A DNA stretch of 64,000 bases from Actinomycetota bacterium (GTDB taxonomy: Bacteria > Actinomycetota > UBA4738 > CALAEC01): NCBI GenBank assembly GCA_050693035.1, contig JBOGWB010000061.1, positions 6,834 through 70,833 on the forward strand, given 5' to 3'. The notes beneath the pieces are model-generated. The model saw nothing but the letters and a program-made list of their open reading frames with translations. It had not been told where the DNA came from and ran no database searches. Below are positions 6,167 to 23,385 of the stretch, one piece after another (the stretch's first letter is position 1; each line of letters begins with the position of its first letter). The position numbers and the translations under genes were made by a program.

Positions 6167-6748
6167 TCACCTTTTGGTCCTCAGGAAGCGTCTGAGACGC
6201 CCGGAAGGACTCGCGAGACGAAATCCCACGCCACGAACCGACTCGATCGTTAGTCTGACGCCATCGGCTCGAAGCTTCCTCCGCAAGCGTTTCACGGCGG
6301 CATGGATGGCCTCGATGTCACCGTAAAACGCCGCACCCCAGACCCTCTTGTAGAGATCACTGAAGGTGCACGCTCGCCCTGGATTCTCCGCCAGGACGAC
6401 CAGGAGCTGGAACTCGTGATCAGTGAGATCCAGTGGCGTTCCAAACCACCGAACCCTCCGCTCGGTCAGGTCGATCTCAAGATGGTCAACCCGGAGGATG
6501 ACGCGAGGAAGATCCCGCTCGCTTCGGAGTCCTAAGGCTTGTGGGAGCCATAGGCGTGCGATCTCGAGGCTCGGCGCGAGCACAACCAGAGAACCGCGGT
6601 CGACCAGGTCGTCGATGCGAGGATGATCCTTGGTCTCCTCTCCGATAAGAAGCACGAGAGGTGGCGATCTCGACAGCGCGGCTGTCCGGGAGGGCGGTGC
6701 AGGACCAGGCATCGTGAGCATCCTGACTCTAGGCCACTCAATAAGCAT
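6167..6748 (-). CDS. OmpR/PhoB-type winged-helix DNA-binding regulator with atypical N-terminal region
   Basis: The C-terminus reads LEIDLTERRVRWFGTPLDLTDHEFQLLVVLAENPGRACTFSDLYKRVWG...AVKRLRRKL...IESVRGVGFRL. The N-terminal part is short and shows no clear receiver acidic pocket. Confidence 0.7.
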   Translation of the reverse strand: MLIEWPRVRMLTMPGPAPPSRTAALSRSPPLVLLIGEETKDHPRIDDLVDRGSLVVLAPSLEIARLWLPQALGLRSERDLPRVILRVDHLEIDLTERRVRWFGTPLDLTDHEFQLLVVLAENPGRACTFSDLYKRVWGAAFYGDIEAIHAAVKRLRRKLRADGVRLTIESVRGVGFRLASPSGRLRRFLRTKR

Positions 6749-7483
6749 CCGAGTATCGGTCGCATGGACGATTTCTCGTCCGAGACTGTCGGCCAGTTAG
6801 AGGGGCTGGACGTAGATAAGGTTCGCTACCTCTGTCTGCTCTCTTCGGGTAGTAGTCATCGCCACAGAAACCCTGGGCAGAGGCCGACACACCTGGGAAA
6901 CAGTCACCGCCTAAGAGAGAGATGCCGCGGACTCTCTGTCCGAACGGAGAGGGTAGCCAGGATCGCTGGGCGTCTGATGCGAGGCTGCCTCAGCCCACAG
7001 GGAGCCACTCGTCTTTCCCTAGTATCAGGCCATGCTCGGGGCTCCGTTTGACTTCGAGGACCTTGAGGCTCTCATCGCGTTCCAGTGGAACAGGTCAATC
7101 CCCTCCCCCGCCAAGAACGCGATCGCCCTCGTCCTATGCTCGCTGGCCGGCGACGATCAAGCGGCGAAGGTTCTGCTCCTGAGGCTGTACGTCCCCGGGG
7201 TTGACCCGGCGGTGGTCCGAGCTACGCAAGAACGTCCTCCCGGAAGACGAGGTCGCGGCGGAGCTGGTCACCGGGTTCCTCATACGAGTGACCAAGACCG
7301 ATCTGGGATCGGAGGATCTCTCCAATCGGCTTATGGGTGCGGCCAGAGGGCATCTTAATGTTCAGACTGGGATAAGAAAGACGCGACCATCGAGTGACCA
7401 AATGCGGGGCCACCGCTAGGGCACATTCCATCCGGGTCGTCACGCAATAGGCTCGAACAAGCCGCTGACCTGCGCTTTCCCTG

Positions 7484-7525
7484 TGGGGCGGGGAGGACTC
7501 GAACCTCCGGCCGACGGATTATGAG
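7484..7525 (-). other. tRNA-Met/Ile2(CAU)-like 3' half with no 5' half: tRNA fragment, possible att-site remnant
   Basis: The minus strand reads CTCATAA-TCCGT-CGGCC-GGAGG-TTCGAGT-CCTCC-CCGCCCC-A. That is an anticodon loop (CAU), 3' anticodon stem, 5-nt variable loop, T-arm, 3' acceptor strand and discriminator, all at canonical lengths. The 5 nt upstream (TCAAA) cannot pair with TCCGT, and there is no D-arm or 5' acceptor strand. Confidence 0.6.
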
Positions 7526-8097
7526 TTTGATCCCGCCAGGCCTGTGGCCTGCCGGATCGGAGACGATGTGGCCTCCGACCAGGGTTTTCTCGCCCCAAGA
7601 CCGACCGGCATTTCTCATCGTTTCGCAGTCCATCGCGGGGCCAATGCGGGGGCACATAATCCTCCCCTGCCGCTACATAAGACGCTCAGACTTCAGGTCA
7701 GCCCCATCGCCGTACTCAAGTACACGGGACCGCCTCCGGCTCACCCCGCCGTCACACCCGAGAATGTTGATGAAACAGGTGCCTGGCTGGGTAGTCGTAA
7801 GCGCGCTTACTCCGGGGTTTCGATGAGCCGCTGGCCCCGATCGGTCGCAGGGCCGCTGGATGGCCTCGGTGAACGCCTGCCCCGAGGGCGGGGGGACCTG
7901 GACGAACGCGTACCGATCACGCAGGAGGAGCCCGCAGCCGTTCTAAGCGCCCTCCATCGAGGAGTTAGCGGCGAGTGCGCCGCTCCCTCAAACGGTAGTC
8001 TCGTCCACCTATCGCCTCTTCCAGCGGATGCCGGCGAACCGAGGCGAACAGCGGCCCTTGGGGCCACAAATGGGGCCAGCCGGCGACAGGCGAGCAA

Positions 8098-10131
8098 TCA
8101 TGCGCGGGGCAAGGGAAGCGAGGCCCGACGAACCCCATCGAGGGCGCTGGCGACCGCATCCAGCGTCAACTTGCTGGCCAGACCCCAGGTCAATGCCCCA
8201 ACGTAGTCGAGGGGAGTGCCGAAGGGCTTGCCTACGTAGACGGTCTGCATCCCCAGGTAGATGGCACCCACCAGCAGAAGCGCAAAGATGACCCTAGTCC
8301 ATGTCCGAATGCGTTGCTCAAGCCACGAGGCTCTGGCTGCCGGCTCTGAAGGCTCGCGCTTGAGATCCGCAAGGAGGTTCCTCCAACGAGGCTCCCGTTC
8401 CTTAAGACGGCTTCCGATCGGCTGCGGAGCGATCAGAAATGACATCTGGGGCTGGGCAGTGAGGAACTCCCGGAGTGCCTCCTCCTCTGGACGGAGATGG
8501 TAGCTAAGTCGGGCGATACTCTGCTCGATCCGATCCATGTCCCGCTCGGTTTCCCTGGCCAGGAAGTCACCCGGATCCACGGCGTACCACAAATCCCACC
8601 TGGCCTCACTAAAGAGGCCATCCAAGCTTCGGAGTGACTTCCGCTCCTCCTCGGTCCAAGGGTCGCTTGGCCGGTCGGCCTGCCCGGCATCCGCGCGCAA
8701 GCGCTTAGCCAACTCCTCCAAGTCATCAAGCTGTGCATCAACTTCGACCCACGCGTTGGCCAGGACCGTCCACTTCGCGACGCTCTCCGCGAGAGCCGGC
8801 AGCGTCTTCAGATCAGTCCTCCCCAAGTCAGGGACGGTGGCGGGGCGGAGGACTTCCTGGGCCCGTTTCAGAAGAGCGGGCCTAATCGGCGAGGTAGGAT
8901 CAACGCTGGGAGGTCGCCTTTCAGGGCGATCGCCCACGTCTCGGACTTTGTTGAGAGCGTCGTCCAAGGCGACCAGCTTCTTTCCGAAGTCCTTCCAGAC
9001 CGTCGCTTGTTCATCGAGTGTCTTCATGTTGGACAGTGCGCCCTTATAGGTCTGGTCCTGCTCATCGAGCACGAAGAAGAACGACTGCTCTACGGCCTTC
9101 AAGTCTGCATCCACCTCGTTGGCGGACTTCTTGAGACGCTGAGCAATCGAGGGGAGGTTGAAACGACGGGCTGCGACATCCTTCTGAAACGCGTCGTCGG
9201 CCTCCTGGATACGCTCTATAGCGCGCGCGAGTTGAATGCGAAGCCTGGAGATCCGCGCGCGGACACCGATGAATCGCTGGATGAGCCATGCCGCTGCCAC
9301 CCCCAAGGCCAACGCGAGCAGTGGGAGAAAGGGTCGGTCCTTGATTACCACGGTAAGCGTGGCCTCGCCGGCCTCGTCATCCTCTGGGAGAAGGTCGACC
9401 TCCCCCTTGTAGGTTCCCGCGTCATAGGATCCGTCGATGCTGAGGTCGAGCGCGGGGACGCCTCCGATGACCTCAGAGGTCTCTCCCATCGATGAGACTT
9501 CGAGGGCACCCTCGCCCCCGGACCGGAGCAGAATCCCGAGCACAGTACCTTCGGGCGGCGGAGAGATGGGTGTGTCCGCTTCCTTCACATCGAGGGGTAG
9601 ACGTGCTTGGTCCATCGAGAGACGGCCCTCGGGGAAATAGAACCACGAACGATACGAGGTGAAGGCATACTCGGAGACAAGAGGACTGTTTGAGGGAGGG
9701 GATGGCTCAGTGACTTCGAGCTCCACTCGTTTGTGGATCACTGGGCCGGTTGGAACCTCCTGCACGCTTAGGGTGCCCACGTATTTCCCAGGTTCAGGCG
9801 TTTGACCCTGATTACCTAGAACTTCGAGCGCAGCGCTGCCCCGTGGGGGCAGCCTCACTCGCCCGAATACCCGAAGGGTAGTTGCCCTCGCTTCCCGAGG
9901 AAGGCCGAATAGGGTCACCCTCGCTCTGAGGAAGCGGACTCGGCCGCTGGAGTTCCACAAGAGCACTTGCTCTATCTCAGGAGGCCACGTATCGGTTGAG
10001 ATGACAAGCGGATCCCGGTCGGCAAACCGGAAGGCCCGCGCTGCCGCCGCAGGGTCGGTCGCGAGAATTCCGACGACAAGACCGAGTGAGGCCGAAAACG
10101 AGAGAGCCAGCCGTCCGAACCTGGGGGCCAC
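8098..10131 (-). CDS. large hypothetical membrane protein, 677 aa
   Basis: Signal peptide (LALSFSASLGLVVGILA), about 270 aa of beta-rich ectodomain, a TM segment (FLPLLALALGVAAAWLI), about 330 aa of charged coiled-coil-like region, and C-terminal TM segments (VIFALLLVGAIYLG, ALTWGLASKL). GC is visibly lower than in the core. Confidence 0.75.
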   Translation of the reverse strand: MAPRFGRLALSFSASLGLVVGILATDPAAAARAFRFADRDPLVISTDTWPPEIEQVLLWNSSGRVRFLRARVTLFGLPREARATTLRVFGRVRLPPRGSAALEVLGNQGQTPEPGKYVGTLSVQEVPTGPVIHKRVELEVTEPSPPSNSPLVSEYAFTSYRSWFYFPEGRLSMDQARLPLDVKEADTPISPPPEGTVLGILLRSGGEGALEVSSMGETSEVIGGVPALDLSIDGSYDAGTYKGEVDLLPEDDEAGEATLTVVIKDRPFLPLLALALGVAAAWLIQRFIGVRARISRLRIQLARAIERIQEADDAFQKDVAARRFNLPSIAQRLKKSANEVDADLKAVEQSFFFVLDEQDQTYKGALSNMKTLDEQATVWKDFGKKLVALDDALNKVRDVGDRPERRPPSVDPTSPIRPALLKRAQEVLRPATVPDLGRTDLKTLPALAESVAKWTVLANAWVEVDAQLDDLEELAKRLRADAGQADRPSDPWTEEERKSLRSLDGLFSEARWDLWYAVDPGDFLARETERDMDRIEQSIARLSYHLRPEEEALREFLTAQPQMSFLIAPQPIGSRLKEREPRWRNLLADLKREPSEPAARASWLEQRIRTWTRVIFALLLVGAIYLGMQTVYVGKPFGTPLDYVGALTWGLASKLTLDAVASALDGVRRASLPLPRA

Positions 10132-10254
10132 CTTCAGGTCTCCGTGCGCCCGATTGCCGGGACGGTAGCCTCACCGCGCTGAAAGGTCAACCCCTGCGTT
10201 GGGATCGTTCGGGTCCCTCGCTGCCCGGTTCCCACCGGCCCCAACAGGAGAGCC

Positions 10255-10524
10255 GTGCCCCTGACGCTTCTGGCACTCTCTGCTCCGTGCACGTCGTGGC
10301 CCAAGGTGTACGTTTCTGTCGGTCCGCCCTGGGAGACGCGCTCGAAGGCGGGCATGCACCCAATGGCTGTGAAGGAGATGATGGGCCACTCAAGCATCCG
10401 AGTGACCTACGACGTCTACGGCCACCTGTTCCCGACGATGCACGAAGCCAGCATCGCCTCCTTAGAAGCCGCTTTCCCCAGCGCCAAGCACCGAGAGGAG
10501 AAAGGCCAGCAGCGTTACGAGTAA
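10255..10524 (+). pseudogene. tyrosine recombinase (phage integrase) C-terminal remnant
   Basis: AGMHPMAVKEMMGHSSIRVTYDVYGHLFP matches the integrase C-terminal box (LGHSSI..T..Y.H) including the catalytic Tyr. The upstream LLALSAPCTSW looks like a degraded H.LRHT.AS box. No N-terminal or core-binding part is present. Confidence 0.6.
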
Positions 10525-10890
10525 CAGCGATCCCTCGCGGCTCGCGCAGTGGAGGAAGTTTGGTGAATTGACGAGGCATACAGGTTGAGAGGTACCGACT
10601 GAGAAGAGACGTGCGTCCGGGACAAGTGCAGACCACCATCGTCGAAGACCGCGATGCCTGCCACGATCACCTCTTGCATCGAAGCTGGCCACTCTCCGAA
10701 GCGTGAACCGCCCGATACCGAGACTCTTCCCGAATGCGGGACATCCATTCCAGGTCTAGCCAATTCTGACTATTGACAGTTCCTCCCCCTCCATAGCAGA
10801 AACCGAGCAAGCGGGACGGCACCGCCGAGCTTGAGGCCGCTTCGTCCTTCCCCACTCTGGTTGCGGGGTGCCCGGAGGGAGGGAGCTGAA

Positions 10891-13800
10891 ATGGCTCTGC
10901 GGCGCTTGCTGGTGGTCCTCATCATCCCATTGATCGTCTTCGAGCTGCCCCCGCTCCCAGGGCTTGACAGATCACCCCAGCCCGCTTGGGCGGACGGACC
11001 CGGCACCAGTCTCGTCTCTATCGGGGACGCCGAAGAGTTCCCGAACGGTACAGGGGAATTTGGATCGATCTCATCAGATGGTCGCTACGTGGCGTTCGAG
11101 TCCGCCGCGTCTAACCTGGTCGCAGGGGACACCAACTCGAAACTCGATGTCTTTGTGCGCGACCGCGTGGCCGGCACGAGCCGGCGGGTTTCGATCTCCT
11201 CCTCAGGGGAGCAGGGCAACGGTCACAGCGGCGGCCCTCCGTCGATTTCCGGCGATGGTCGATTCGTGGTCTTTACGTCTCAGGCGACAAACCTCGTGTC
11301 TGGCGACACCAACGGAATTACTGACGTCTTCGCTCATGACCTTGTCACGGGTACCACCACCCGGGTTTCGGTCGACTCCTCAGGCAACCAGAGCAACGAC
11401 ATAAGTAGCTTGCCGCGTATCTCGGGAGACGGCCGCTACGTCGTCTTCCAGTCCGATGCATCAAACCTCGTTCCAGAGGATACCAATGGCGGCGTCTTCG
11501 GTCAAGACATCTTCCTGCATGATCGCGTTACGGCGGAAACATCGCGCATGTCCGTGGGTCCATCGGGGCAGCAGTGCGACTGCGACAGCTCCGATCCCTC
11601 CATTTCCAGCGACGGCCAGTTCGTCGCGTTCCGATCGGATGGCCTTACTCCTGGAGAGAGCCATGTCGGATTCGCCATCTACGTGAGACAGGTGTCGCCA
11701 TACGACATAGAAATTGTCTCCAATGGCCCCGAGGACACCCCTGCGAACGGGAACACCGGGGAGCTATCTTGGATCTCGGCCGATGGCCGCTACGTCGCCT
11801 TCGCGTCCTGGGCAACGAACCTGGTCCCAAACGACACGAACGAGTTGGAGGACATCTTCCTCCACGACCGACTGACTCGCTCTGCGAAGCGCGTAAACCT
11901 GAGCTCTTCGGGTGCCCAAGCCAATAACTACGACTTTGGAGCCGTACGTCGAATCTCCGTCTCGGCTCACGGGAGATTTATCGCCTTTGCATCCGACGCC
12001 ACGAATCTCGTGCCCTTCGACACGAACATGCAAAGAGATATCTTCGTACGGGACGTCGTAGCAGGCACCACGACTCGTGTATCTGTCGACAACTCCGGGA
12101 ATCAGAGCAGCTCGGCGAGTGAGCGGCCAGCGATCTCCTCGAACGGTAGGTACGTTGTCTTCGACAGTCGCATGCTATCGGGCGGTTCCCTGCAGGTGCA
12201 TATCCGCGACCAGGGACCGCTGCTTTCGATTCCGGATGCTCAGACTTTCGGCCCCTGCCAGAGCGCCACGCACGCCGCCAACCCGACCGACTGCCAGTCC
12301 GACCCGGTCAACAGCGCCACAGGTAGTTTCGTTACCTCCGCAACGGATATAGCTCTGCCCGGAATCGGGATTCCGTTCGTATTCTCCCGCTCGTATACGT
12401 CTGCGGATACGAGTCCAGGACCCCTGGGCATTGGCTGGACCCACAACTACGGGGTGTCGCTGACTATACAGCCCAACGGGGATGCGATCTTCAGAGCCGA
12501 AACCGGGCAGCAGATCCCTTTTACCCTTCAAGCCGACGGGTCGTTCCTTCCCCCCTCCGGCGGCCGCTCGACCCTCCGCGCGGTCCAGGGTGGATACGAA
12601 CTCCTCACCCGGGATCAGATTCGTTACCGGTTCGACACTCAGGGGCGGGTCACGAGCCTCAAGGAGCGCAACAACCAAGGCCTTACCTTCTCCTACGATG
12701 CCGATGGTCGGCTCAACGTGATCACGGACAGCGTGGGCCGAGCGATCTCCCTCACGTACAACCCCTCCGGGCTGCTTTCCGGGGTCAGCGTGCCTGATGG
12801 CCGAAGCGTAGCCTACGGGTACACTTCGGGGCGGCTCAGTTCGGTCACGGACGTCCGCGGGGGAACGAGCTCGTATACGTATGACGCGAACGGTTGGCTC
12901 GAAGCGGTCGTCGACGCTAACAGCCACACCGTTGTCACGAACACCTACGGATCCGGAGGCCGGGTCATCCGCCAGGTAGACGCCCTGGGGAATCCGAGCA
13001 CGTTTTCTTGGGATTCCGCGACTCAGACGCAGACCATGACCGATGCCCGGGGCAACACCTGGCAGGACGTCTACTCGGGCAATGTCCTGATCCGCCGCAT
13101 CGATCCTCTAGGTAACACCATCACATTCGATTACGACGACGACCTCAACCTCATGAGCATCACCGACCCTCGCGGCAACACCACTTTGCTTGCATACGGG
13201 CAGGCGGGCAACCTCATCAGTCGGACGGCGCCCCGTCCGCTCGCCTACAAGGAAACGTTCAAGTACGACGCCCAGAACAACCTTGTGAGTCGCCGGGACG
13301 GTCGAGGGAACACGACGAGATATGACTATGACGCCGCTGGAAACCTGATCAGGGTCACCGAACCCGGGAATGTGGTTACTGAGTATGGGAGGCACCCGGA
13401 CGGAACAGGTCAGTTGGTAAGCATAACGGATCCTCGACTTAAGGTCACCCGATTCGACTATGACACCTCCGGGAATCTGACGACAATCACTTCTCCGCTA
13501 GGGAATGTGATCAGGATCTGTTACGACTCGGCGGGACGCATGACCAGCCTGGTCGAACCTCGAGGCATCACATGCGCAAACCCAGACGACTATCGGTGGG
13601 TCTACACCTACGACGCTGCGGGTAACATGCTGACCGAGACCGATCCCTTGGGAAACCGGACGACGTGGGGGTACGATTCCGCCGGGAATCTGACGAGCCG
13701 GATCGACGCTAAGGATCGGACGACCAGTTGGGCGTATAACGCGGCCAACGAGCTCACATCTGTGACGGCTCCCGGAAACATCATTACAAGCTATGATTAT

Positions 13801-15753
13801 GACGCCGTAGGAAACCTCAGGACTCGCACCGACGCCAAGACGCACGTGACCACGTACGGTTACGATCAAGCCAACCGTCTCTCAAGCGTCACGTTGCCCC
13901 TGAACCGGCAATGGACCTACGACTACGATGCGTCGGGCAACCTCACAACGACCATCGATGCGGCAGGAAGCGCGACTCCCCAAACTGGAGACGGCACGAC
14001 CACCTACTCGTACGATGCGCTGAACAGGCTCACCGGCATCGACTACAGCGACGCCACTCCCGATGTCACCTTTGGTTACGATGCCAACTCAAACCCCACC
14101 TCGATGACCGACGGAGCCGGGACCGAAACATACACATTCGACGATCTCGACCGCCTCACGCGAGTTACCCGCGGAAGCCAAACCTTTTCTTACGAGTACG
14201 ACGCCGCCGGGAACGTTACCAAGAGGACCTACCCCGACAGTACTGTAGTGGACTATTCGTATGATGACGATGGCCGTCTCTTGAACATCACTTCCGGTGG
14301 AGCCACGACGACCCACGGCTATGATGTGGCTGGGAATCTCACACAGATCACGCTGCCTTCCGCGAACGGATATGGCGAAACCCGCACTTATGACCGTGCG
14401 GGACGGCTTACAGAAGTGAAGAATGCGAAGGGGACGGATGTCCTCTCGCGGTTCACCTACACGCTCGATGCCGTAGGCAACCCGACCCAGGTCGTCACGC
14501 CAACGGAGACAATCACCTATCAGTACGACAACATGGATCGCCTGACCGAAGTCTGCTACCAGGCGAGCTGCCCCGGGGCCAATGACCCCTTCATTCGACA
14601 CAGTTACGATAACGTTGGGAACAGGTCAACCGAGACTCGACCGGCCGGAATCACGACGTACAGCTACAACGACGCCGATCAGCTCACCTCACGTAGCGGG
14701 CCGAGTGGGACCACCTCTTACTCCTATGACCCCAACGGGAATCAGACCGCCGCAGGCAACACGACCTTCACCTATGACCTGGCAAACCGGATGAAGTCCG
14801 CCACGACAGGCCCCACGACCATCACCTACACATACGATGGCGCAGGGAAGCGCCTGCAGGCTTCATCCGGGAGCCAGGCTTCCAAGAAGACAAACTACCT
14901 CTCGGACGTCAATGGAATTCTTAGCCAGCTTGCCCTTGAGCGTGATGGCAGCGACCGGCTGCTCCGACGATATGTGCATGGACACGATCTCGTTTCCATG
15001 AGCACCGGAGGCGCCCCATACTACTATCACCACGACGGACTGGGGAGCATTGCCAATCTCACTTCAGACAAGGGCGTGCTTCAGTGGACATACTCGTACG
15101 AGCCCTTCGGCGTTGTCCGTAGCGAGATCAAGAACAACCGCAACGCACCCACAAACCTGATGCGCTTCGCCGGCGAGCTGCTTGACACGACCACGGGCCT
15201 CTATCATCTCCGGGCCCGAGAATACGATGCAACCACGGGACGGTTGCTCAGGATTGATCCGCTACCTGCTCCAATCTCGGCACCCTACACGGGACGATAC
15301 GTATACGTCGGCAACCGGCCGACTGTTCTAGTCGATCCCAGCGGGCTTCGGGGAGTCGACAAGTCAGGCTGTCCCTACTGGGGACGGCTGTTAACCTTCG
15401 GGGAGTGGGAGAACGTCTACTGCGAGGGCTTCCAGAGCATGAGCCCAGGGTGGCAGGCGGCTCTGGGTGGGAACTGGAACTTTAGTGCCTGCTGGTACGG
15501 CTGTATTACCGTGGGGGCCGAGGGCATTTCCATCGGGTTCTTCCAGTTTGGGCCCGGCAAAACACGAATTCGACAGGGCTTCGGCTTCGCCGCTTACGCG
15601 ACGATTGGATCAGAGCCTGAGAGCGGACTGTCTGCCATGGTCTGCAATGGCGTTTGCCTAGGCGGGTACGGGAATGTTGGGGCGCCGGGAGGAGGCGCGC
15701 AGGTGGGAATCGGCACGCCCGGCGTATTTTTGGGCGGGAATATCGAACCGTGA
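10891..15753 (+). CDS. secreted RHS/YD-repeat polymorphic toxin (WapA-like)
   Basis: ATG at 10891 gives the signal peptide MALRRLLVVLIIPLIVF. It has seven PD40-like repeats, then DPVNSATGSFVTSATDIALPGIGIPFVFSRSYTS, dozens of YD repeats (Y.YD..GNL...TDP.GN) and the RHS core YYYHHDGLGS...GLYHLRAREYDATTGRLLRIDP...VLVDPSGL, followed by a 134-aa variable tail. Confidence 0.9.
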   Translation: MALRRLLVVLIIPLIVFELPPLPGLDRSPQPAWADGPGTSLVSIGDAEEFPNGTGEFGSISSDGRYVAFESAASNLVAGDTNSKLDVFVRDRVAGTSRRVSISSSGEQGNGHSGGPPSISGDGRFVVFTSQATNLVSGDTNGITDVFAHDLVTGTTTRVSVDSSGNQSNDISSLPRISGDGRYVVFQSDASNLVPEDTNGGVFGQDIFLHDRVTAETSRMSVGPSGQQCDCDSSDPSISSDGQFVAFRSDGLTPGESHVGFAIYVRQVSPYDIEIVSNGPEDTPANGNTGELSWISADGRYVAFASWATNLVPNDTNELEDIFLHDRLTRSAKRVNLSSSGAQANNYDFGAVRRISVSAHGRFIAFASDATNLVPFDTNMQRDIFVRDVVAGTTTRVSVDNSGNQSSSASERPAISSNGRYVVFDSRMLSGGSLQVHIRDQGPLLSIPDAQTFGPCQSATHAANPTDCQSDPVNSATGSFVTSATDIALPGIGIPFVFSRSYTSADTSPGPLGIGWTHNYGVSLTIQPNGDAIFRAETGQQIPFTLQADGSFLPPSGGRSTLRAVQGGYELLTRDQIRYRFDTQGRVTSLKERNNQGLTFSYDADGRLNVITDSVGRAISLTYNPSGLLSGVSVPDGRSVAYGYTSGRLSSVTDVRGGTSSYTYDANGWLEAVVDANSHTVVTNTYGSGGRVIRQVDALGNPSTFSWDSATQTQTMTDARGNTWQDVYSGNVLIRRIDPLGNTITFDYDDDLNLMSITDPRGNTTLLAYGQAGNLISRTAPRPLAYKETFKYDAQNNLVSRRDGRGNTTRYDYDAAGNLIRVTEPGNVVTEYGRHPDGTGQLVSITDPRLKVTRFDYDTSGNLTTITSPLGNVIRICYDSAGRMTSLVEPRGITCANPDDYRWVYTYDAAGNMLTETDPLGNRTTWGYDSAGNLTSRIDAKDRTTSWAYNAANELTSVTAPGNIITSYDYDAVGNLRTRTDAKTHVTTYGYDQANRLSSVTLPLNRQWTYDYDASGNLTTTIDAAGSATPQTGDGTTTYSYDALNRLTGIDYSDATPDVTFGYDANSNPTSMTDGAGTETYTFDDLDRLTRVTRGSQTFSYEYDAAGNVTKRTYPDSTVVDYSYDDDGRLLNITSGGATTTHGYDVAGNLTQITLPSANGYGETRTYDRAGRLTEVKNAKGTDVLSRFTYTLDAVGNPTQVVTPTETITYQYDNMDRLTEVCYQASCPGANDPFIRHSYDNVGNRSTETRPAGITTYSYNDADQLTSRSGPSGTTSYSYDPNGNQTAAGNTTFTYDLANRMKSATTGPTTITYTYDGAGKRLQASSGSQASKKTNYLSDVNGILSQLALERDGSDRLLRRYVHGHDLVSMSTGGAPYYYHHDGLGSIANLTSDKGVLQWTYSYEPFGVVRSEIKNNRNAPTNLMRFAGELLDTTTGLYHLRAREYDATTGRLLRIDPLPAPISAPYTGRYVYVGNRPTVLVDPSGLRGVDKSGCPYWGRLLTFGEWENVYCEGFQSMSPGWQAALGGNWNFSACWYGCITVGAEGISIGFFQFGPGKTRIRQGFGFAAYATIGSEPESGLSAMVCNGVCLGGYGNVGAPGGGAQVGIGTPGVFLGGNIEP
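11053..12217 (+). repeat. seven tandem ~58-aa PD40/TolB-like beta-propeller repeats (protein-level) inside the RHS gene
   Basis: The unit S(S/G)DGR(Y/F)V(A/V)F.S.A.NLV..DTN...D(V/I)F..D recurs near RHS ORF residues 83, 140, 199, 259, 317, 378 and 437. Confidence 0.7.
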
Positions 15754-15974
15754 GTAAGCCGAACAGACCTCGATTCAGCCGTACCGCAGGAATCGTGGCC
15801 ACAATTGCAGTGGTAGCGGTTGCCGGGTTCGTGCTTACGCGCTCTATCCCAGGTGTCTGGTGGAGAATTGTCTATGTCGGCATGGTCTTGCTGGTCCTGA
15901 TTAACATCGCTGTTGGGGAGCGCGACGGTCTCTACGATCGCGCCACGAGATGGCTTAGGCGGTTCCGTCAATAG
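15750..15974 (+). CDS. putative RHS immunity protein, 74 aa, two TM helices
   Basis: GTG at 15750 forms a GTGA overlap with the RHS stop (15751-15753). It is in frame with track ORF 15654..15974. The sequence is VSKPNRPRFSRTAGIVATIAVVAVAGFVLTRSIPGVWWRIVYVGMVLLVLINIAVGERDG... Confidence 0.5.
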   Translation: MSKPNRPRFSRTAGIVATIAVVAVAGFVLTRSIPGVWWRIVYVGMVLLVLINIAVGERDGLYDRATRWLRRFRQ

Positions 15975-16203
15975 GCAGCTGACCATCAGACTCGATGACC
16001 CTGGGTTTCTGGGTGGGTCGAATCGGAGCGGGGGGACCGTTTCCGTTGTGGCGATGCCACGACGATCAAGTGGGTCGCGTTAGGCGGGTCCGGATCGGGT
16101 CCATCCTCCAGTACGTTCGGAACCTCCCCTGGGAGCGGGCCGTCCTCCGGGACTTCTTCCCCTCCGAGTTCCACGACTGGCCGGAGCCATGGTGGCCGGG
16201 ACC

Positions 16204-16527
16204 ATGAGCATCGAGATCACGGTGGCCATCATCGCCGCGTCCCCTCCCACCCTTGCCGCCATCCTGGCCTTCCTCCAGAGCCGGTCCGTCCGCCGGCAGG
16301 TGGCGACCAGCGGGAAGGCCCCCATCGGGGCGGTGGTGGAGCGCCTCGAGCGAAGGGTGGAGCGGCTGGACGAGAAGGTGTCGGGGATCGCGGACCGCCT
16401 CGCGCACATGGAGGGGCGGGAGGTCCTTCCCCTGCGGCTCGACCGGCGCGTGGAGCGGCTGGACGAGGAGCTGCGCGCCCTGGGCGAGCGTGTGGCCCGG
16501 ATCGAGCCGAAGGGCGGGACCCCCTGA
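16204..16527 (+). CDS. small membrane-anchored coiled-coil protein
   Basis: MSIEITVAIIAASPPTLAAILAFL is a TM segment, followed by the duplicated heptad-like motif RLERRVERLDEKV / RLDRRVERLDEEL. Its stop overlaps the ATG of the next ORF (TGATG). Confidence 0.45.
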   Translation: MSIEITVAIIAASPPTLAAILAFLQSRSVRRQVATSGKAPIGAVVERLERRVERLDEKVSGIADRLAHMEGREVLPLRLDRRVERLDEELRALGERVARIEPKGGTP

Positions 16528-16787
16528 TGGACGCGGACCGGCGGATACGCGGCGGCACGAACGAGGACGTGCCGAGAGGAACGGCGAAGGAGCGCAACCT
16601 TCTGATGTCCGTTCAGGAGGGGGTGCTGCTCCGCGTCGAGGCGGCGGCGATCTTGCTCGGCATCGGCAGAACGACCATGTACGAGCTGATCAGGCGCAGA
16701 GCGATCCCCGTGGTGCGGATCGGACGCCGTACCCTCGTCCACCGCGCGGACTTGGAGCGATTCGCACAGGCCCAGCGCGGTCGGTAG
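16527..16787 (+). CDS. excisionase-family / MerR-like helix-turn-helix DNA-binding protein
   Basis: LLRVEAAAILLGIGRTTMYELIRRRAIPVVRIGRRTLVHRADLERF is a typical xis-type HTH. An alternative start is ATG at 16605. Confidence 0.7.
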   Translation: MDADRRIRGGTNEDVPRGTAKERNLLMSVQEGVLLRVEAAAILLGIGRTTMYELIRRRAIPVVRIGRRTLVHRADLERFAQAQRGR

Positions 16788-16960
16788 GGATCGATGTCCG
16801 CACGACCGCGTGGCTCGCTCACCATCCGACCGCCACGCCAGCCGGGTGGTCGTGCGGCACCGGCCGACGCTCCATCTCGGCAGAGATGTCATAGGAGTGC
16901 CGGACCATCCCCGCTACGGACCGGCCCCGAGTCGGGGCCGAAGGCGCAGGAGAACTGGTC

Positions 16961-18169
16961 GTGAGTAGGCGGCGTGGATACGGCGACGGAACGGTCAGGC
17001 AGCAGGGCCGACGATCGTGGCAAATCAGGGTCCCACTGGGTGCGGATCCGCTGACCGGAGCGTGGCTCAGGCACACCGAAACAATCACCGGAACCAAGGC
17101 TGAGGCGGAGAGAAGACGGCGGGAACTCCGCCTCGAGCGAGACAGAGGAACCCTTGCGACCCCGGGCAACAAGACCCTGGAGGAGTACCTCAGGAAGGAG
17201 TGGCTCACAGCCGTCTCCCATGTGTCGAAGCGCGGCCAGCCACTCGCTCCCACCACGCGCAGGCGATATGGGGACGTCGTCGACCACGTCTGCCGGTTGA
17301 TCGGCGACGTGAAGCTGGCCTCCCTGCGCACCGCCCACGTCGAGCGGCTCCGGGACGAGATGCTCAGCGAGACGCTGGAGCGGAAGAGCGGTGAGGTCAT
17401 CCCTCGCTTCAGCCCCCAGACCGTGGGCGACATCCTGCGAGTGCTGTCGCAGGCCCTGCGCAAGGCCGAGGCCAAGGGGCTGATCTCCAGGAACTGGGCG
17501 GACCCGACCCTCGTCGATCGTCCCGCCGGTCAACCCAGGGAACTGCCCCCGATGGAAGAGGATCTGGCGAAACGCATCCTGGAAGCGGTCCGGGGGGAGG
17601 ATCCCTGGGACGCGGCGGTTCATCTGGCATTGGGCCTGACGATGCGCCGAGAGGAGGTTCTCGGCCTCCGCTGGCCAGACGTCGACCTGCGGGAAGGGAT
17701 CCTCACCGTCAGGAACACGATCACCTACACGCCCAGACAGATGCACGAAGGGGGACCAAAGACGGAGGCTGGGAGGCGGACGGTCCCCGTGCCAGCGTTC
17801 GTGGGCGAGGCCCTTCGCCGCCATCGGAAGCAGCAGTCGAGGCGGCGCCTCCGCCTAGGGTCGGCTTGGCGGGACGGGTGGGACGTGGTGGTAGATCGGG
17901 GCGACGGTGCACCTTGGCTGCCCCCCACGTTTTCCAGAGCGTGGACGTCCTTCGCCAAGAAAGCGGGCTTCCCTGACATCGGGTTCCACGAGCTCCGACA
18001 CGGCGCTGCGACCCTCATGCTCGCCGCGGGGATCCCGGACGCGGTCGCCATCAAGTTGATGGGCCACCGAGACACCCGCATCCTCAGGCGCTATCAGAAA
18101 GTCGTCGACCGGCTCAAGCGAGAGGCTGCTGGGAAGTTGGACGAGCTGCTGGGCGGCCCGGGGAGCTGA
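16961..18169 (+). CDS. tyrosine-type site-specific recombinase (integrase)
   Basis: The GTG start gives a 402-aa protein. The N-terminus GYGDGTVRQQGRRSWQIRVPLG is SAM-like. Catalytic motifs are GLRWPDVDL, HELRHGAATLMLAAGIPDAVAIKLMGHRDTRILRRYQKV. Confidence 0.9.
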   Translation: MSRRRGYGDGTVRQQGRRSWQIRVPLGADPLTGAWLRHTETITGTKAEAERRRRELRLERDRGTLATPGNKTLEEYLRKEWLTAVSHVSKRGQPLAPTTRRRYGDVVDHVCRLIGDVKLASLRTAHVERLRDEMLSETLERKSGEVIPRFSPQTVGDILRVLSQALRKAEAKGLISRNWADPTLVDRPAGQPRELPPMEEDLAKRILEAVRGEDPWDAAVHLALGLTMRREEVLGLRWPDVDLREGILTVRNTITYTPRQMHEGGPKTEAGRRTVPVPAFVGEALRRHRKQQSRRRLRLGSAWRDGWDVVVDRGDGAPWLPPTFSRAWTSFAKKAGFPDIGFHELRHGAATLMLAAGIPDAVAIKLMGHRDTRILRRYQKVVDRLKREAAGKLDELLGGPGS

Positions 18170-18313
18170 GCCGAGAATGCGGCGAAGCGTGCTGCAATCA
18201 GTTCCCATCGAGAGGTGGCTTGTCGTTGAATTCCGGCATCCTTCACCAAATTGGGTTTGAATTGGATAGCGGACCACCGACTCCCGGCTCCGAAGCCACT
18301 CCTCCAGGGCTAC

Positions 18314-19603
18314 TCATTTGTCTCCCTCAATGATCCGCAGATACTCCTGGTAGCGTCGACGGGCGTTCTCGATCATGTCTTGGTAGGTCCACAAGACCGG
18401 GTAGTCTCGCATGTCAGCGAGCTCCCGAGCCTCATCAGAAATCTTGCGGCCAATAAGGTAGATAAGCGGGTTCTTCTTCTGACCCTGGTGCTTTCTAATC
18501 AAGCGTAGGTACAACTCGGCCTGGTCCACCTCCGGTTTCTTTATCTCCACGGATGGACGCTTGATTTCCACTAAGACCGGCCGCTTTCCAACGAGATCTA
18601 CACAAGCGAAGTCCGGACGATTCTTGGCATACTTGCGATCTGATTTCGCCAGCTCTTGCCCAATGATCTTCCTCAAGCTCCGGTTGGACTGCGCGATCCA
18701 GTACTCATCGTTCAGCAGCCACATGCTCTTCTCGAGTGTGCGGTGAATGGACTTGTCCCCCTTTAACTCGTATGTGTTGTCATCCAGCACAAGATCTTCC
18801 AGCGTGTCAATCGTGTTAATGCGTGATACCAGGATGTTGACGAGCGCGGTGACCTGCAGCAGATTCCACTCCTCCATCAGGTCAGTCAGTTCATCCAGCG
18901 CCTTGGCCGGCTCTTTAGCCAAGCGCTTGATAACGTCTTGGAAGGCGACCTGGATGCGCTTCTGACCCTTCGGAATCGCCGCATCGACGGAACTGAGGAG
19001 ATCAAATGCGAAATCGGCTCCCTGCCTCTCCACGAGATCAGCGATTCGTTCGGGGAGCTTCTTCCGCTCCCTCTTTGGTATAGCCTCGGCGGCTTCGGGC
19101 AAGCGGCTTAGAACCCGCTTGACTTCCTTCGTTTCAGGAAGGACATCATCAGATGTTCTGGTGAAGGTCTCCGGAAACGCCTCATTGAGGAACTGAGTTG
19201 CCGTTCGGAGGCCCGTCTGTCGGTAAACCTCAAAGAAGCGTGCCTGGCCCGCCTCTCGAAATGCCTCGTAGTTGACTACTACTCGTTTCGCTCCTATGGA
19301 CGACTCTCCGTCGGATAGCACGAGCGCGCAATCGGACCCGAGCTCTGCACGAATCAATTCGATAAGGTGCTTTCCACCGCGGAACCCTCTAAGGAGTAGG
19401 GCGTCGTAGGCTCTGGTGCCATCTCGGAACTTTCGCTTCTCCAGGTCCTTCTTCAGATCCGCGCTGATAAACAGCGGCTGGTCCTTCAGCGCTCCATAAC
19501 TGCGATTCTGAATCTCGATCGGAATGGGTTGCGCCAAGCCCGCTTGCGTACGTCGCTTGCGTCCTCCAGAAGGCTGCTTTGGTGATGTCCGTTTCCGCGT
19601 CAC
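18314..19603 (-). CDS. DUF4263 / Shedu (SduA)-like PD-(D/E)xK nuclease-domain protein
   Basis: The C-terminal part reads IHRTLEKSMWLLNDEYWIAQSNR...NRPDFACVDLVGKRPVLVEIKRPSVEIKK...QAELYLRLI. This fits the D...E.K core and flanking pattern I associate with DUF4263. It has the lowest GC sampled in the window (48% and 55% in two hand-counted lines). Confidence 0.6.
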   Translation of the reverse strand: MTRKRTSPKQPSGGRKRRTQAGLAQPIPIEIQNRSYGALKDQPLFISADLKKDLEKRKFRDGTRAYDALLLRGFRGGKHLIELIRAELGSDCALVLSDGESSIGAKRVVVNYEAFREAGQARFFEVYRQTGLRTATQFLNEAFPETFTRTSDDVLPETKEVKRVLSRLPEAAEAIPKRERKKLPERIADLVERQGADFAFDLLSSVDAAIPKGQKRIQVAFQDVIKRLAKEPAKALDELTDLMEEWNLLQVTALVNILVSRINTIDTLEDLVLDDNTYELKGDKSIHRTLEKSMWLLNDEYWIAQSNRSLRKIIGQELAKSDRKYAKNRPDFACVDLVGKRPVLVEIKRPSVEIKKPEVDQAELYLRLIRKHQGQKKNPLIYLIGRKISDEARELADMRDYPVLWTYQDMIENARRRYQEYLRIIEGDK

Positions 19604-19658
19604 TTGTGGTTCCTGCCTGCTCTCTTCTTGAAAGCGATTAGCGGATACATGTGCGAGG

Positions 19659-20780
19659 TCACCTCTTGTCGGTGGGCCAATGAATCGGCTTTTTGAGATC
19701 GTTGAGGTGCGATCGCGGCACCTTGGCGTCCCGTTGAAGCCGGCCTACAACAATCCCGGGAGCAATTTCCTGGGCCTGCGCGAAGACACGAATAGCGCTG
19801 GCGCTGAAATCGCCCGCATCGACGAACGCCTGGTACTCGTGTGGTGGCAGCAGAACGTCTCGGGCGAACCGGTTCGCCGTCTCCTCGTCAGCGTCGGAAT
19901 CCGGGGGAAACTCCAGGTCGACCGGGTCGACGAACTCTCGCTTTCGAGAAGAGGTGAGGACATGGCCAGCCTCATGGAAGAAAGTGAACCAGAAGTGATC
20001 GTCCGACTTATGGCGCGCGCTGAGCTGGATGACTGGACTGCCACCGACCCAGCGGATAGCGCCGCTGATGTGCGTGCCCTCGAACTCAGGGGTTAGGAGA
20101 ACGATGACGCCGGCCTTGGCGCACATCGTTATGACCCGATTGAGAATCTGCATGAATGGACCACGGCGCGTCATTGGTCGAATCTGTTCCAGGACCTGCC
20201 GGAATCCATGGGCATCAAAGGGCGGCAGATCAGCAATCTCGGCGGCTAGGATCTCGCCCCAGCGCAGCCAGGCGGCCACCGCCTTAGGTGATGCCATGAA
20301 CGCCGGTGACGAACGGTAGGCCGCCTCCGGAGCAAGCCAATGCCGCTCGAAGGCTTCGGGGCTGCTCACCTGGAAGAAGGAGAGCAGCTCGGCCAGCGTT
20401 CCCGCTTTCGTAGCACCACGCCGGATCAGGTCGCGCCGGATGAGATCCTTGAGTGGGAAGCCATCGGCCCAACTGGCATTGGCCTCAAGTTCCTTCTGGG
20501 CCTCCTGACGGGCCGCATGTTCGCGAAACCTGGTCTCCAGCCCTGTCCAGAACCTCGCCGAGATGCCGAGGGCCCGCTCAAGCTGGATCGCCGTCTCAGC
20601 GGTGATCGCTGCCTTGCCCTTGATGATCTCGTTGATGGTCTTCAGGGGGCGCGCCATCCGGCGGGCCAGCTCGGACTGTGTCATCCCGCGATCCTGCAAG
20701 GACTCAAGGAGGATCTCGCCGGGCGGGACGGTCCAATCGGGCTGCCAGCCCGACGTTGGGTCATTTGCCATGGTAGTCAA
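19659..20780 (-). CDS. HigA-type XRE HTH fused to ImmA/IrrE-type zinc metallopeptidase
   Basis: The N-terminus PGEILLESLQDRGMTQSELARRMARPLKTINEIIKGKAAITAETAIQLERALGISARFW is a HigA/VapI HTH. The C-terminus FWFTFFHEAGHVL carries HExxH. The start overlaps the upstream HigB-like gene. Confidence 0.8.
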   Translation of the reverse strand: MTTMANDPTSGWQPDWTVPPGEILLESLQDRGMTQSELARRMARPLKTINEIIKGKAAITAETAIQLERALGISARFWTGLETRFREHAARQEAQKELEANASWADGFPLKDLIRRDLIRRGATKAGTLAELLSFFQVSSPEAFERHWLAPEAAYRSSPAFMASPKAVAAWLRWGEILAAEIADLPPFDAHGFRQVLEQIRPMTRRGPFMQILNRVITMCAKAGVIVLLTPEFEGTHISGAIRWVGGSPVIQLSARHKSDDHFWFTFFHEAGHVLTSSRKREFVDPVDLEFPPDSDADEETANRFARDVLLPPHEYQAFVDAGDFSASAIRVFAQAQEIAPGIVVGRLQRDAKVPRSHLNDLKKPIHWPTDKR

Positions 20781-21072
20781 CGACCTCCTTGATCACGATT
20801 TTCGTCACTCGGGCCCGGTCGGTGCCTCCAGCGGGCAACCGGGGCAACGGATCGTGATCGGGTTCGAAGATCAGTCGATACGAACCCCACAGGTCGACAG
20901 CGAACTCGCCGGCACGGTCTGCACGAAGCTGATGGCAGTTGCCCGGCACCCCTTCCATGTCCCGCAAGGTCGGAGCGGCCATCAACGACGCCAGCCGAAG
21001 CTTGAGCCGCCGCCAGTTTTCCGCGCCCCAACGCTTCGCTCCCCGTCGATCGTCGGAACACGTCTTCTCCAA
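20761..21072 (-). CDS. HigB-like (RelE/ParE superfamily) toxin; true 5' end unclear
   Basis: LRLASLMAAPTLRDMEGVPGNCHQLRADRAGEFAVDLWGSYRLIFEP...VIKEVVDYH matches the plasmid-maintenance killer HigB pattern. Homology continues upstream of the TTG at 21072 (KIEISWSNRRLEK, to about 21110), where no canonical start is present. Confidence 0.65.
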   Translation of the reverse strand: MEKTCSDDRRGAKRWGAENWRRLKLRLASLMAAPTLRDMEGVPGNCHQLRADRAGEFAVDLWGSYRLIFEPDHDPLPRLPAGGTDRARVTKIVIKEVVDYHGK

Positions 21073-21165
21073 CCTACGGTTGGACCACGAAATCTCGATT
21101 TTCGCTCCCTTGACTTCTTCACCCTTGGGGTTAATACTACACTACCCCTAGGGAGGAATACCAGG

Positions 21166-22302
21166 GTGGCCAGGAGGTGGGTTCAACAGGCATTCGAGGA
21201 CGTGGATTTCGTCCCGGTGCCCGGTGGCAGCGGTCACTACGTCGCGGCCGTCCAGAACAAGTCCGGCGAATTGGATGCACTCCGCAACGCTTCGGCGGAG
21301 ACGTGGAGCCGGCTGACCCCGCTCGTCCAAATCGTGGGCCCCAAAAAGCGGCCTGAAGCACACAAGCGAGACACGGTCGCCGGCTGGGTCAAGCGCATCT
21401 CCCAGGCGGTTGGTCATCGGCCATGTTTCCTAGACGTCCTCCGCCTTCGTCCAGGACATCCCACGACGACATCCGGGGGAGCCGAGCCGATTCTCAGCGT
21501 CATCCACGCGGCGGCTCGGAAACGCGGCATGGTCTTCGTCCCGGTCCTGCCCATCGGCCGTTCCGACGGCAGAGATTACGTGCGCCTCGCCGGCGAGGCC
21601 GTGGCCTGCGATGGACGAGGCGCCGCGCTGCGGTATCCGATACGGCGCTTCGCGCTGGAACCAGGCGAGACCCACGCGACCGTGCTCGCCGAGGCCCTCA
21701 GGGACCTGGGGATCGACGTGACTCGTGCAGACGCCCTCGTCGATCTCGGCTACCTCTCAGGGGACGAGGAGCTGCACCTCGAAGATGTGGACGAAGCCCT
21801 CAAGGAGGTGACTGCCGTCGGTCCGTGGCGCAGCCTCGTGCTGCTCGGCACCTCGATGCCATCCATGCTCGGAGGGACGGTCGGCGAGGGAACGATCGGC
21901 GAGCTGCCGCGCCGAGAGTGGGAGCTATGGTCCGCGCTTCAGCAGGATACCTCTAGGCGAATGCCAACCTACGGCGACTACGTCGTTCAGCATCCTGATC
22001 CGCCACGCGACGAGGATGGTGGTGGCCCCGGCATGCGAGCCAACATCCGTTACACAATTACGAGCACCACGCTCGTTGCTCGGGCGCGCGGGCCGCTAAT
22101 CCAGGAGGGCCGGGAGCAGTACCGGGACCTCTGTCAGCAACTCGTCGCCAGACCGGAGTTCTCGGGCCCCGACTTCAGTTGGGGAGATTCAGTGATTGCT
22201 GCATGTGCCAGCGGGGAAAGCGAGCCCGGATCGCAGAACCAGTGGCGAGGAGCAGGATCATCCCACCACTTCCGCGTTGTGACACAGGCGCTCAGCCGCT
22301 GA
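21166..22302 (+). CDS. beta-protein family (PF14350-like; sce7725-like) protein
   Basis: GTG at 21166 is preceded by GGGAGG. HYVAAVQNKSGELDALRNASAETWSRLTPLVQI matches the Y.P.L+.K.GE..AL...TPL.E. opening of the T4 beta-protein family as I recall it. The upstream 200 codons of track ORF 20563..22302 are antisense to higBA and were ignored. Confidence 0.6.
   Translation: MARRWVQQAFEDVDFVPVPGGSGHYVAAVQNKSGELDALRNASAETWSRLTPLVQIVGPKKRPEAHKRDTVAGWVKRISQAVGHRPCFLDVLRLRPGHPTTTSGGAEPILSVIHAAARKRGMVFVPVLPIGRSDGRDYVRLAGEAVACDGRGAALRYPIRRFALEPGETHATVLAEALRDLGIDVTRADALVDLGYLSGDEELHLEDVDEALKEVTAVGPWRSLVLLGTSMPSMLGGTVGEGTIGELPRREWELWSALQQDTSRRMPTYGDYVVQHPDPPRDEDGGGPGMRANIRYTITSTTLVARARGPLIQEGREQYRDLCQQLVARPEFSGPDFSWGDSVIAACASGESEPGSQNQWRGAGSSHHFRVVTQALSR

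Positions 22303-23312: not shown

Positions 23313-23385
<73 letters not shown>

Follow-up and report, generated by a model that had tools for sequence, protein, structure and literature searches.

A glycine- and cysteine-rich RHS toxin tail and its two-helix membrane neighbour from an uncultured Actinomycetota lineage: a predicted membrane-directed toxin/immunity pair

RHS proteins and other polymorphic toxins are a main source of new antibacterial activities. To our knowledge, nearly all of their characterised cargoes are enzymes, and the few membrane-active ones are hydrophobic, helical and of Gram-negative origin. The closest described systems are Tse5 (RhsP1, PA2684) of Pseudomonas aeruginosa, which with its partner Tsi5 forms a system in which an RHS toxin delivers a membrane-inserting, pore-forming C-terminal fragment (PMC10684867), and the ionophore toxins of contact-dependent growth inhibition (CDI), namely CdiA-CT of Escherichia coli EC93 and relatives with their CdiI partners, which are polymorphic and consist of a variable N-terminal entry domain followed by a membrane-active domain (PMC11630599). 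Here, an RHS gene and the small open reading frame (ORF) that follows it are described from a 64,000-nucleotide (nt) stretch of DNA, referred to as the window, of an Actinomycetota metagenome-assembled genome (MAG; contig JBOGWB010000061.1). From its sequence, and with a probability that we put at roughly 0.6, the cassette at the tip of this apparently Sec-exported RHS protein is predicted to consist of an extracytoplasmic, membrane-directed, non-enzymatic toxin and its immunity protein.

Other described domains invite comparison through their size, composition or fold. Tox-WTIP was the sole pore-forming domain in a 2012 survey of polymorphic toxins, where it was confined to proteobacteria and characterised by two hydrophobic helices and by RxxR and Wx[ST]IP motifs (PMC3482391). 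Ntox38 is an actinobacterial, all-beta domain of 33-43 amino acids (aa) with three strands, an invariant C-terminal PXhhG and no catalytic residues; its usual place is behind a WXG domain and a glycine-rich linker (type VII secretion system), and its partner Imm56 is a soluble alpha+beta protein (PMC3482391). In Rhodococcus (Prescottella) equi, the virulence-associated proteins (Vap) include VapD, whose surface is 'bald' and rich in glycine (PMC4118825), and VapA, which makes liposomes permeable (PMC10100859).

The RHS carrier and its two-part tail

The open frame at 10831-15753 of the forward strand is a single long ORF, translated as an RHS protein in a 1640-aa frame. Translation probably starts at the ATG at 10891 (1620 aa), which is also the start called on an identical Logan contig (L016). 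The NCBI annotation of the MAG begins the gene 7 codons downstream of this ATG, and the product equals NCBI MGH2682722.1 ('MAG: DUF6531 domain-containing protein [Actinomycetota bacterium]') across the 1613 shared residues, except for the start-codon residue. With its basic n-region, hydrophobic core and AWA motif, the N-terminus (MALRRLLVVLIIPLIVF...AWA) resembles a Sec signal or signal-anchor, a putative class read from these features. It is followed by a propeller region that contains five 68-nt direct repeats (family D1) and, beyond DUF6531, by RHS repeats that are matched by Pfam RHS_repeat in 20 stretches (E 1.2e-115) and by TIGR01643 (E 5e-89). Three traits of RHS/YD polymorphic toxins are present in the sequence: tandem repeats, a core that runs to DPxGL and is succeeded by a variable C-terminus, and a downstream gene of the immunity type.

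The core ends at DPSGL (15334-15348, frame residues 1502-1506), the point at which the match to Rhs_assc_core (TIGR03696) also stops. Of the 134 aa in the tail beyond it (15349-15750), 31 are Gly (23.1%, against 9.8% in the RHS core) and 6 are Cys (4.5% against 0.5%); the aromatic residues are 5 Trp, 9 Phe and 5 Tyr. The next ORF, of 74 aa, starts at a GTG (15750) within the GTGA that also holds the RHS stop codon (15751-15753). A sequence-only reading of this DNA had placed the end of the core at DPSGL, had counted 134 residues with 31 Gly (23%), 6 Cys and many aromatics, and had pointed to the overlapping 74-aa frame with two hydrophobic helices; core boundary, counts and frame (15750-15974) were all recovered here. 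Length, composition and coordinates of the tail thus stand as that reading gave them, yet the tail is not the one domain it was described as, being composed of an adaptor of ~36 aa and a toxin module of ~98 aa.

This division emerged when 1.84 billion representative proteins were searched exhaustively with HMMER: 17 of them matched the tail, 2 over the part termed module A and 15 over the part termed module B. The window's own protein is missing from the 17, likely because the RHS core governs how whole proteins cluster at 50% identity, and the number is a lower bound if RHS-borne copies were under-counted. One RHS end (P0009) and one 1835-aa RHS protein (P0011) match tail residues 1-45 only, at 68-69% identity and directly after a DPSGM of their own, and beyond module A their C-terminal domain differs from module B. 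Because they continue into a different domain, module A is best regarded as an adaptor common to RHS proteins with differing payloads. It may be a plug lodged in the RHS shell, or an entry or receptor-binding element by analogy with the CDI ionophore toxins (PMC11630599). The alternative payload of P0009 and P0011 is an unnamed C-terminal domain that contains a hydrophobic stretch and ends rich in His and Trp (...WHLFLNWWLKGV...IPFPW / ...FQINWWLDGV...IPLPFK).

The 15 further proteins match tail residues ~37-134 only, in each case at the extreme C-terminus, and module B is accordingly the predicted payload, that is, the toxin proper. The family alignment (A1) displays two CxxxC motifs, a GGYxN motif and a G[VI]GTPGVFxG end. 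Its invariant columns consist of Gly, Cys and Phe only, with more Cys and Gly columns and one Pro, Tyr and Asn column nearly invariant, and no conserved Asp, Glu, His, Lys or Ser is found in the family alignment. GxxxG is the packing motif of the glycine zippers of helical depolarising toxins; in module B, conserved GxxxG spacings (G116xxxG120 and G125xxxG129) lie in predicted strands and flank the conserved Pro. An internal duplication of module B, with each half carrying one CxxxC, was considered and set aside as weak (12 aligned columns, P 0.003, probability 10%).

Module B is carried in several contexts. Complete or partial RHS proteins that bear it are the window protein, P0016 (1450 aa, with an fn3 N-terminus) and the RHS ends P0015, P0003 and P0007. 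On contig L003 it sits on an orphan RHS tip, whose frame opens with ...YVANQPLSFVDPSGL (...FVDPSGL) ahead of module B, and on L014 the sequence ...VVDPLGL, a Cys-rich linker and module B are all in frame. On L004/L005 and L010 an RHS end (DPLGL) and module B occupy different frames, with the shifts at differing positions; orphan copies in decay, or errors of assembly, account for these cases. Programmed frameshifting was rejected as an explanation, since the shifts fall at different places and L014 is in frame. P0004, P0008 and P0012 have N-terminal parts without a Pfam match, and P0014 stands alone after an ATP synthase epsilon gene. A Cys pair occurs in most of the linkers between DPxGL and module B.

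Family searches, predicted structure and the small membrane neighbour

The tail, in which no nuclease, deaminase, ART or peptidase motif had been recognised from the letters alone, has no confident match to a known toxin family in Pfam, NCBIfam, PADLOC, PDB sequences, Foldseek searches of PDB and BFVD, plasmids and phages. Pfam returned nothing significant for the window tail (best Pom, E 0.2), and the 15 family members, taken one by one at E up to 10, gave two isolated matches (E 0.13 and 8.6), each restricted to a single member. The tail is without a match in NCBIfam, the module B profile produced only noise against all PDB sequences, and it found no match in plasmid and phage collections or viral contigs. 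The 74-aa ORF likewise belongs to no Pfam or NCBIfam family at a meaningful score. PADLOC offered no relevant match for either the toxin or the immunity candidate, its sole match for the 74-aa ORF (ZorA, E 0.008) being rejected as one of transmembrane composition.

Among 185,579 species-representative genomes the profile matched once, in Deinococcus saxicola (L002), and this is a false positive that lies antisense within a 437-aa ORF of the opposite strand, which by eye we take to encode argininosuccinate synthase. A metagenome profile scan recovered one decayed copy of module B (L001), and the single tail sequence, used as the query, matched none of the genome and metagenome contigs scanned. 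A word-indexed protein search with the tail also returned nothing, and missed even the tail's own protein, so that it under-samples this case. The traceable contigs with module B are all metagenome assemblies (ENA, JGI or Logan), mostly of ~59-62% G+C. Judged by its sequence, module B is a rare domain outside all of the named families searched, and with its neighbour it makes up a predicted new toxin/immunity family within the known RHS kind of polymorphic toxins.

An AlphaFold model built from a 19-row alignment has a mean predicted local distance difference test (pLDDT) score of 69.7, rising to 84-92 over tail residues 81-130, and 4 of the 5 models agree; a single-sequence run of the tail was unusable (pLDDT 39). 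Module B is modelled as all-beta, with two 17-residue strands arranged as a hairpin and one 7-residue helix. Foldseek found nothing significant for this model (best E 0.36 in PDB and 0.18 in BFVD), and compact matches are limited to small eight-stranded barrels, chief among them VapD and VapB of R. equi (probability 0.57-0.80, template-modelling score 0.38-0.50, E 0.55-0.71). Along the strands, conserved G/S/T/C/N/Y positions alternate with variable hydrophobic ones. Charged residues amount to 4.5-14% of module B against 18.9% of the RHS core, and the grand average of hydropathy is positive in all 15 members (+0.03 to +0.63) against -0.49 in the RHS core.

The 74-aa ORF encodes a protein with hydrophobic segments at about residues 12-30 and 40-56 and a basic amphipathic C-terminal tail (GERDGLYDRATRWLRRFRQ); P0022 on Logan contig L016 is identical to it. 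By the positive-inside rule, both ends are predicted to be cytoplasmic (N-in/C-in), leaving the short loop alone outside. A two-helix membrane ORF also lies 3' of module B in 10 of the 10 other distinct loci that retain downstream sequence. These small neighbours have 55-87 aa, two hydrophobic helices and the strand of the toxin, and their starts lie between 22 nt inside the toxin ORF and ~60 nt downstream of it (window, L001, L003, L004/5, L006, L008, L009, L010 and L014). The small ORF of L007 was read from a six-frame piece with its start undefined, and contig L011 stops at the toxin stop codon. No other conserved neighbour of module B was seen on the contigs examined.

Homology among these ORFs was assessed with leave-one-out profiles against 1991 six-frame pieces. 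The window ORF was recovered at E 0.018, and those of L010, L004, L009 and L001 at 4e-4, 7e-8, 2.6e-10 and 6e-3, respectively; the L008 ORF was not significant (0.23), and those of L003 and L007, not recovered, have architecture alone in common with the others. The small ORFs of at least five of the other loci are detectably homologous to that of the window. The closest toxin homologue (P0005 on L006) has 64% identity over the matched part, and the small ORF beside it is one of the two closest to the window's, with 44% identity over 41 residues (E 7e-7) and SGVWWRV versus PGVWWRI in the loop; in global alignment with the window ORF, the L006 and L010 ORFs are 32% and 33% identical. Conservation of the 74-aa ORF next to homologous tails, on which the sequence-only reading had staked its pairing, is thus found. 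Toxin and immunity identities are weakly correlated (Mantel r 0.36, p 0.055, n = 8).

The immunity candidates have in common a basic N-terminus, a GV.W[KRQ] loop between the helices and a basic amphipathic tail that starts with G-R-[DS]-x-L-[FY]. An immunity profile yielded 14 clusters among 5.8 billion proteins, of which L014 (with the toxin) and L015 and L017 (without it) were followed up. L015 (4149-4373) and L017 (3179-3352) encode homologues of the 74-aa protein with no module B nearby and represent orphan immunity genes, which are usual in such systems. The most frequent immunity subfamily begins with MNTRTANRISGVLGMLA... (P0025-P0032).

Mode of action and its alternatives

The cassette is most likely a membrane-acting toxin/immunity pair of bacterial competition. 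In the course of events envisaged here, the RHS shell would enclose a fragment of ~14 kDa, and an aspartyl protease activity would free it by cleavage behind DPSGL, on the model of characterised RHS proteins, Tse5 among them (PMC10684867). Once released near a neighbour cell, module B would fold into a disulfide-stapled, glycine-rich beta structure with its hydrophobic face outward, and would act on the cytoplasmic membrane from outside, where it would insert and collapse the membrane potential or else jam a target embedded in the membrane. Within the producer, the 74-aa hairpin would encounter and block the toxin within the membrane plane, with the GV.W[KRQ] loop pointing outward.

A membrane-directed, non-enzymatic function is favoured by the lack of catalytic-type conservation, the few charges and the dyad-patterned strands taken together. 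The four conserved Cys in two CxxxC motifs, along with the Cys pairs of the linkers, fit a disulfide-bonded protein outside the cytoplasm, and if the paired Cys do form disulfides, as their composition suggests, then the site of action would be extracytoplasmic. The hydrophobic variable face and the near absence of charge point to contacts with lipid or within the membrane, and an immunity protein that exposes so few residues outside suggests that the toxin is met at or in the membrane. The sequence-only reading had proposed a membrane-targeting or pore-forming toxin rather than an enzyme: the membrane-directed and non-enzymatic part of this proposal gains indirect support from the restriction of invariant residues to Gly, Cys and Phe, the scarcity of charges and the two-faced strands, but the domain is predicted to be all-beta and is no hydrophobic helical pore-former. 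Module B may form a pore, and direct permeabilisation is considered somewhat more likely than blockade of a receptor.

Several observations weigh against a membrane-directed toxin. The model was derived from 19 sequences and, with the mean pLDDT of 69.7, remains below 70 in its N-terminal half, and the whole-domain period-2 signal is marginally above that of shuffled sequences (123/2000). The tail has no hydrophobic stretch of the length of a transmembrane helix, the top 19-residue Kyte-Doolittle mean being 1.22, and module B is therefore unlike every characterised depolarising polymorphic toxin. The downstream ORFs of L003, L007 and L008 resemble that of the window in architecture only, without detectable sequence similarity. 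Moreover, we infer the monoderm envelope from the 'Actinomycetota' label of the MAG and from gene order only.

The same non-catalytic conservation, conserved Cys and small membrane immunity protein would also fit a bacteriocin-like module B that forms no pore itself but binds an envelope target at the membrane's outer face (lipid II or a membrane transporter, for instance), which it would block or open; protection by the two-helix protein would then come from shielding this target or from capturing the toxin. Several Gram-positive bacteriocins do bind envelope targets and have small membrane immunity proteins, and the predicted fold is a compact beta domain that is not obviously membrane-spanning. 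Nevertheless, this receptor-binding mode is judged unlikely, if the least unlikely of the alternatives, as Pfam reveals no likeness to a bacteriocin family, a hydrophobic variable strand face with very few charges would be unusual for a soluble binder, and no candidate receptor can be named. Far less credit is given to a module B that acts in the cytoplasm as an enzyme or intracellular binder, with the two-helix protein neutralising it through its cytoplasmic C-terminal helix or not being an immunity protein at all. Most characterised RHS tails are indeed enzymes that act in the cytoplasm (PMC3482391), and the immunity candidates do conserve the cytoplasmic G-R-[DS]-x-L-[FY] after their second helix; yet module B conserves no acidic, basic, His or Ser residue for catalysis, the cytoplasm would keep its four CxxxC cysteines reduced, the enzyme families and folds searched gave no match, and no other conserved neighbour was seen on the contigs.

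Glycine- and hydrophobic-rich composition combined with a predicted all-beta structure could also be expected of a structural, adhesive or amyloid-like surface domain with no toxic function, in which case the small membrane ORF would be an accessory without relation to it, and the [ST]PGV motif is perhaps reminiscent of glycine/valine-rich actinobacterial surface proteins. This is thought highly improbable. Module B sits after the DPxGL of RHS proteins, where toxins sit, and swaps with another C-terminal domain on the same adaptor; an orphan RHS tip (L003) keeps the small downstream gene, which moreover co-varies with module B, and none of the 15 members matches the chaplins or another family of surface proteins.

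For the membrane-directed toxin, a more specific mechanism can tentatively be put forward, though we hold it to be more doubtful than probable. In it, RHS cargo would for the first time include a membrane-permeabilising domain of beta structure stapled by disulfides, module B being a small glycine-lined barrel or hairpin oligomer that inserts from outside into the cytoplasmic membrane of monoderm neighbours and is neutralised in the bilayer by a minimal two-helix protein, and its mechanism would be distinct from those of all helical glycine-zipper and colicin-like depolarisers. New cargo families are common, but a beta-rich, Cys-stapled, apparently membrane-acting cargo with a 74-aa antidote is unusual. 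If the membrane-directed reading is true, a beta-rich, Cys-stapled, non-enzymatic cargo with a 74-residue membrane antidote would broaden what RHS proteins are known to deliver, here from an uncultured soil lineage of Actinomycetota with a Sec-exported RHS carrier, and the compact pair would lend itself to the study of how membrane toxins are neutralised within the bilayer. The separate adaptor hints at a CDI-like layout of entry domain plus toxin in actinobacterial RHS tails.

Genomic setting and comparison with described systems

The RHS locus is situated in a stretch of lower G+C content (about 59-65%, mostly ~60%; ~6000-16000) than the window as a whole (66.6%). Positions 6000-23400, at about 54-65% GC, contain the RHS locus, a tyrosine integrase and many ORFs without Pfam matches between two tRNAs (Table 1), and are probably one or two genomic islands; no flanking or tRNA-derived direct repeats were found around this region. 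Just upstream of the RHS gene and divergent from it is a 677-aa ORF (8098-10131, reverse strand) with no Pfam or PADLOC match, which shares Logan contig L016 with the RHS locus; this contig equals window positions 7814-16352 at 100% identity. After the immunity gene, in a stretch of 70% GC, an ORF at 16189-16527 (forward strand) contains a 93-nt-spaced tandem repeat (16341-16473) with RLERRVERLDEKV-like heptads (coiled coil); it is unrelated to the toxin or immunity profiles. Further to the right, the gene pair at 19659-22302 looks like an anti-phage defence module. A 326-aa ORF at 26259-27239 (reverse strand) has a weak match to RVT_1 (E 3e-6) that falls below the Pfam cut-off. The rest of the window includes rnj, ftsK, cinA, rny, miaB, hflX and a class II ribonucleotide reductase, a gene set and order that resemble those of a chromosomal recA region of a Gram-positive lineage, in keeping with the Actinomycetota label of the MAG.

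Table 1. Positions in the window of the RHS cassette, its parts and neighbouring features
Feature	Positions	Strand	Evidence or remark
tRNA-Ser	6393-6476	-	left bound
RHS polymorphic toxin gene	10891..15753	+	RHS repeats, DUF6531, Rhs_assc_core
Putative N-terminal Sec-type signal or signal-anchor (MALRRLLVVLIIPLIVFELPPLPGLDRSPQPAWA)	10891..10992	+	read from translation
PD40/TolB-like beta-propeller repeats (SxDGRxVxFxSxAxNLVxxDTN units)	11068..12026	+	Pfam PD40 E 2e-10; NCBIfam TolB propeller weak
DUF6531 ahead of the RHS repeats	12301..12522	+	Pfam PF20148 E 3.9e-21, frame residues 491-564 (frame of 1640 aa)
RHS repeat-associated core ending in DPSGL	15097..15348	+	TIGR03696 E 5.1e-15, residues 1423-1506
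Module A, 36-aa Cys-pair adaptor (RGVDKSGCPYWGRLLTFGEWENVYCEGFQSMSPGWQ), tail residues 1-36	15349..15456	+	68-69% identity to P0009, P0011 segment
Module B, predicted 98-aa Gly/Cys-rich all-beta toxin domain, tail residues 37-134	15457..15750	+	alignment A1, AlphaFold model
Module B, CxxxC motifs	15490-15504, 15643-15657	+	alignment A1
Module B, G-I-G-T-P-G-V-F-L-G-G end	15706-15738	+	alignment A1
Immunity candidate, 74 aa, two-helix membrane hairpin	15750..15974	+	GTGA overlap, hydropathy, homologous loci
Immunity candidate, first transmembrane segment (TM1)	15783-15839	+	hydrophobic segment
Immunity candidate, short loop with GVWWR, predicted to face outward	15840-15866	+	between TM1 and TM2
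Immunity candidate, second transmembrane segment (TM2)	15867-15917	+	hydrophobic segment
Tyrosine integrase	16961-18169		right of the RHS locus
HTH_3 + Peptidase_M78 ORF	19659-20780	-	adjoins 'Beta protein' gene
'Beta protein' gene, 579 aa	20563-22302	+	Pfam E 4e-60; PADLOC PD-Lambda-2_C E 4e-44
tRNA-Gly	23312-23385	-	

Among the smaller described domains, Tox-WTIP resembles module B in being a small, non-catalytic toxin domain found on RHS proteins, although it also occurs on other scaffolds (PMC3482391). Membership of module B in that family was rejected, as the RxxR and W-TIP motifs are absent from the tail and membrane helices are not predicted. Like Ntox38, module B is actinobacterial and without catalytic-type conservation, and it is predicted to be all-beta. 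Compared by description only, the PGVFxG end of module B (P-G-V-F-G in P0004) resembles, and does not equal, the PXhhG of Ntox38; by the same comparison module B differs from Ntox38 in its ~98 aa, its two CxxxC motifs, its RHS carrier with a Sec-type N-terminus and its two-helix membrane partner. The Vap proteins are small, actinobacterial and secreted, and provide the best compact Foldseek matches of the module B model (E not significant). They differ from module B in having no CxxxC, in not being RHS cargo and in acting on host membranes, and homology was rejected, given a probability of 0.4% when hhalign compared A1 with an alignment of the six Vaps of plasmid pVAPA1037 (A6), and no Pfam Vap match in the 15 members. 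The likeness is a weak structural resemblance of the model, not membership.

The membrane-depolarising systems offer the closer parallel. Like the CDI ionophore toxins, the window tail has a two-part C-terminal region, and some CDI entry domains are predicted to hold a disulfide; in contrast to module B, the CDI ionophore domains are predicted five-helix bundles delivered by CdiB/CdiA in proteobacteria, whereas here the scaffold is RHS and the domain is beta-rich (PMC11630599). Module B lacks the hydrophobic transmembrane alpha-helices that are the trait of the helical depolarising toxins (Tse5-CT, Tse4, EsxX and the CDI ionophores). With Tse5 the cassette would have in common, as predicted from its genes, a C-terminal fragment of ~14-16 kDa that is encapsulated by the RHS shell and released by an aspartyl protease, non-enzymatic action on the cytoplasmic membrane, and an adjacent immunity gene (PMC10684867). 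Tse5-CT, unlike module B, is an integral-membrane toxin of a diderm, delivered by the type VI secretion system through PAAR (PMC10684867). Module B for its part has no stretch of transmembrane grade, is predicted to be all-beta and conserves four Cys, and its carrier, from an Actinomycetota MAG, is of the Sec type without PAAR; sequence similarity between Tse5 and module B was not detected. By analogy, then, the cassette would work in the manner of the Tse5/Tsi5 and CdiA-CT(EC93)/CdiI pairs while standing outside those families.

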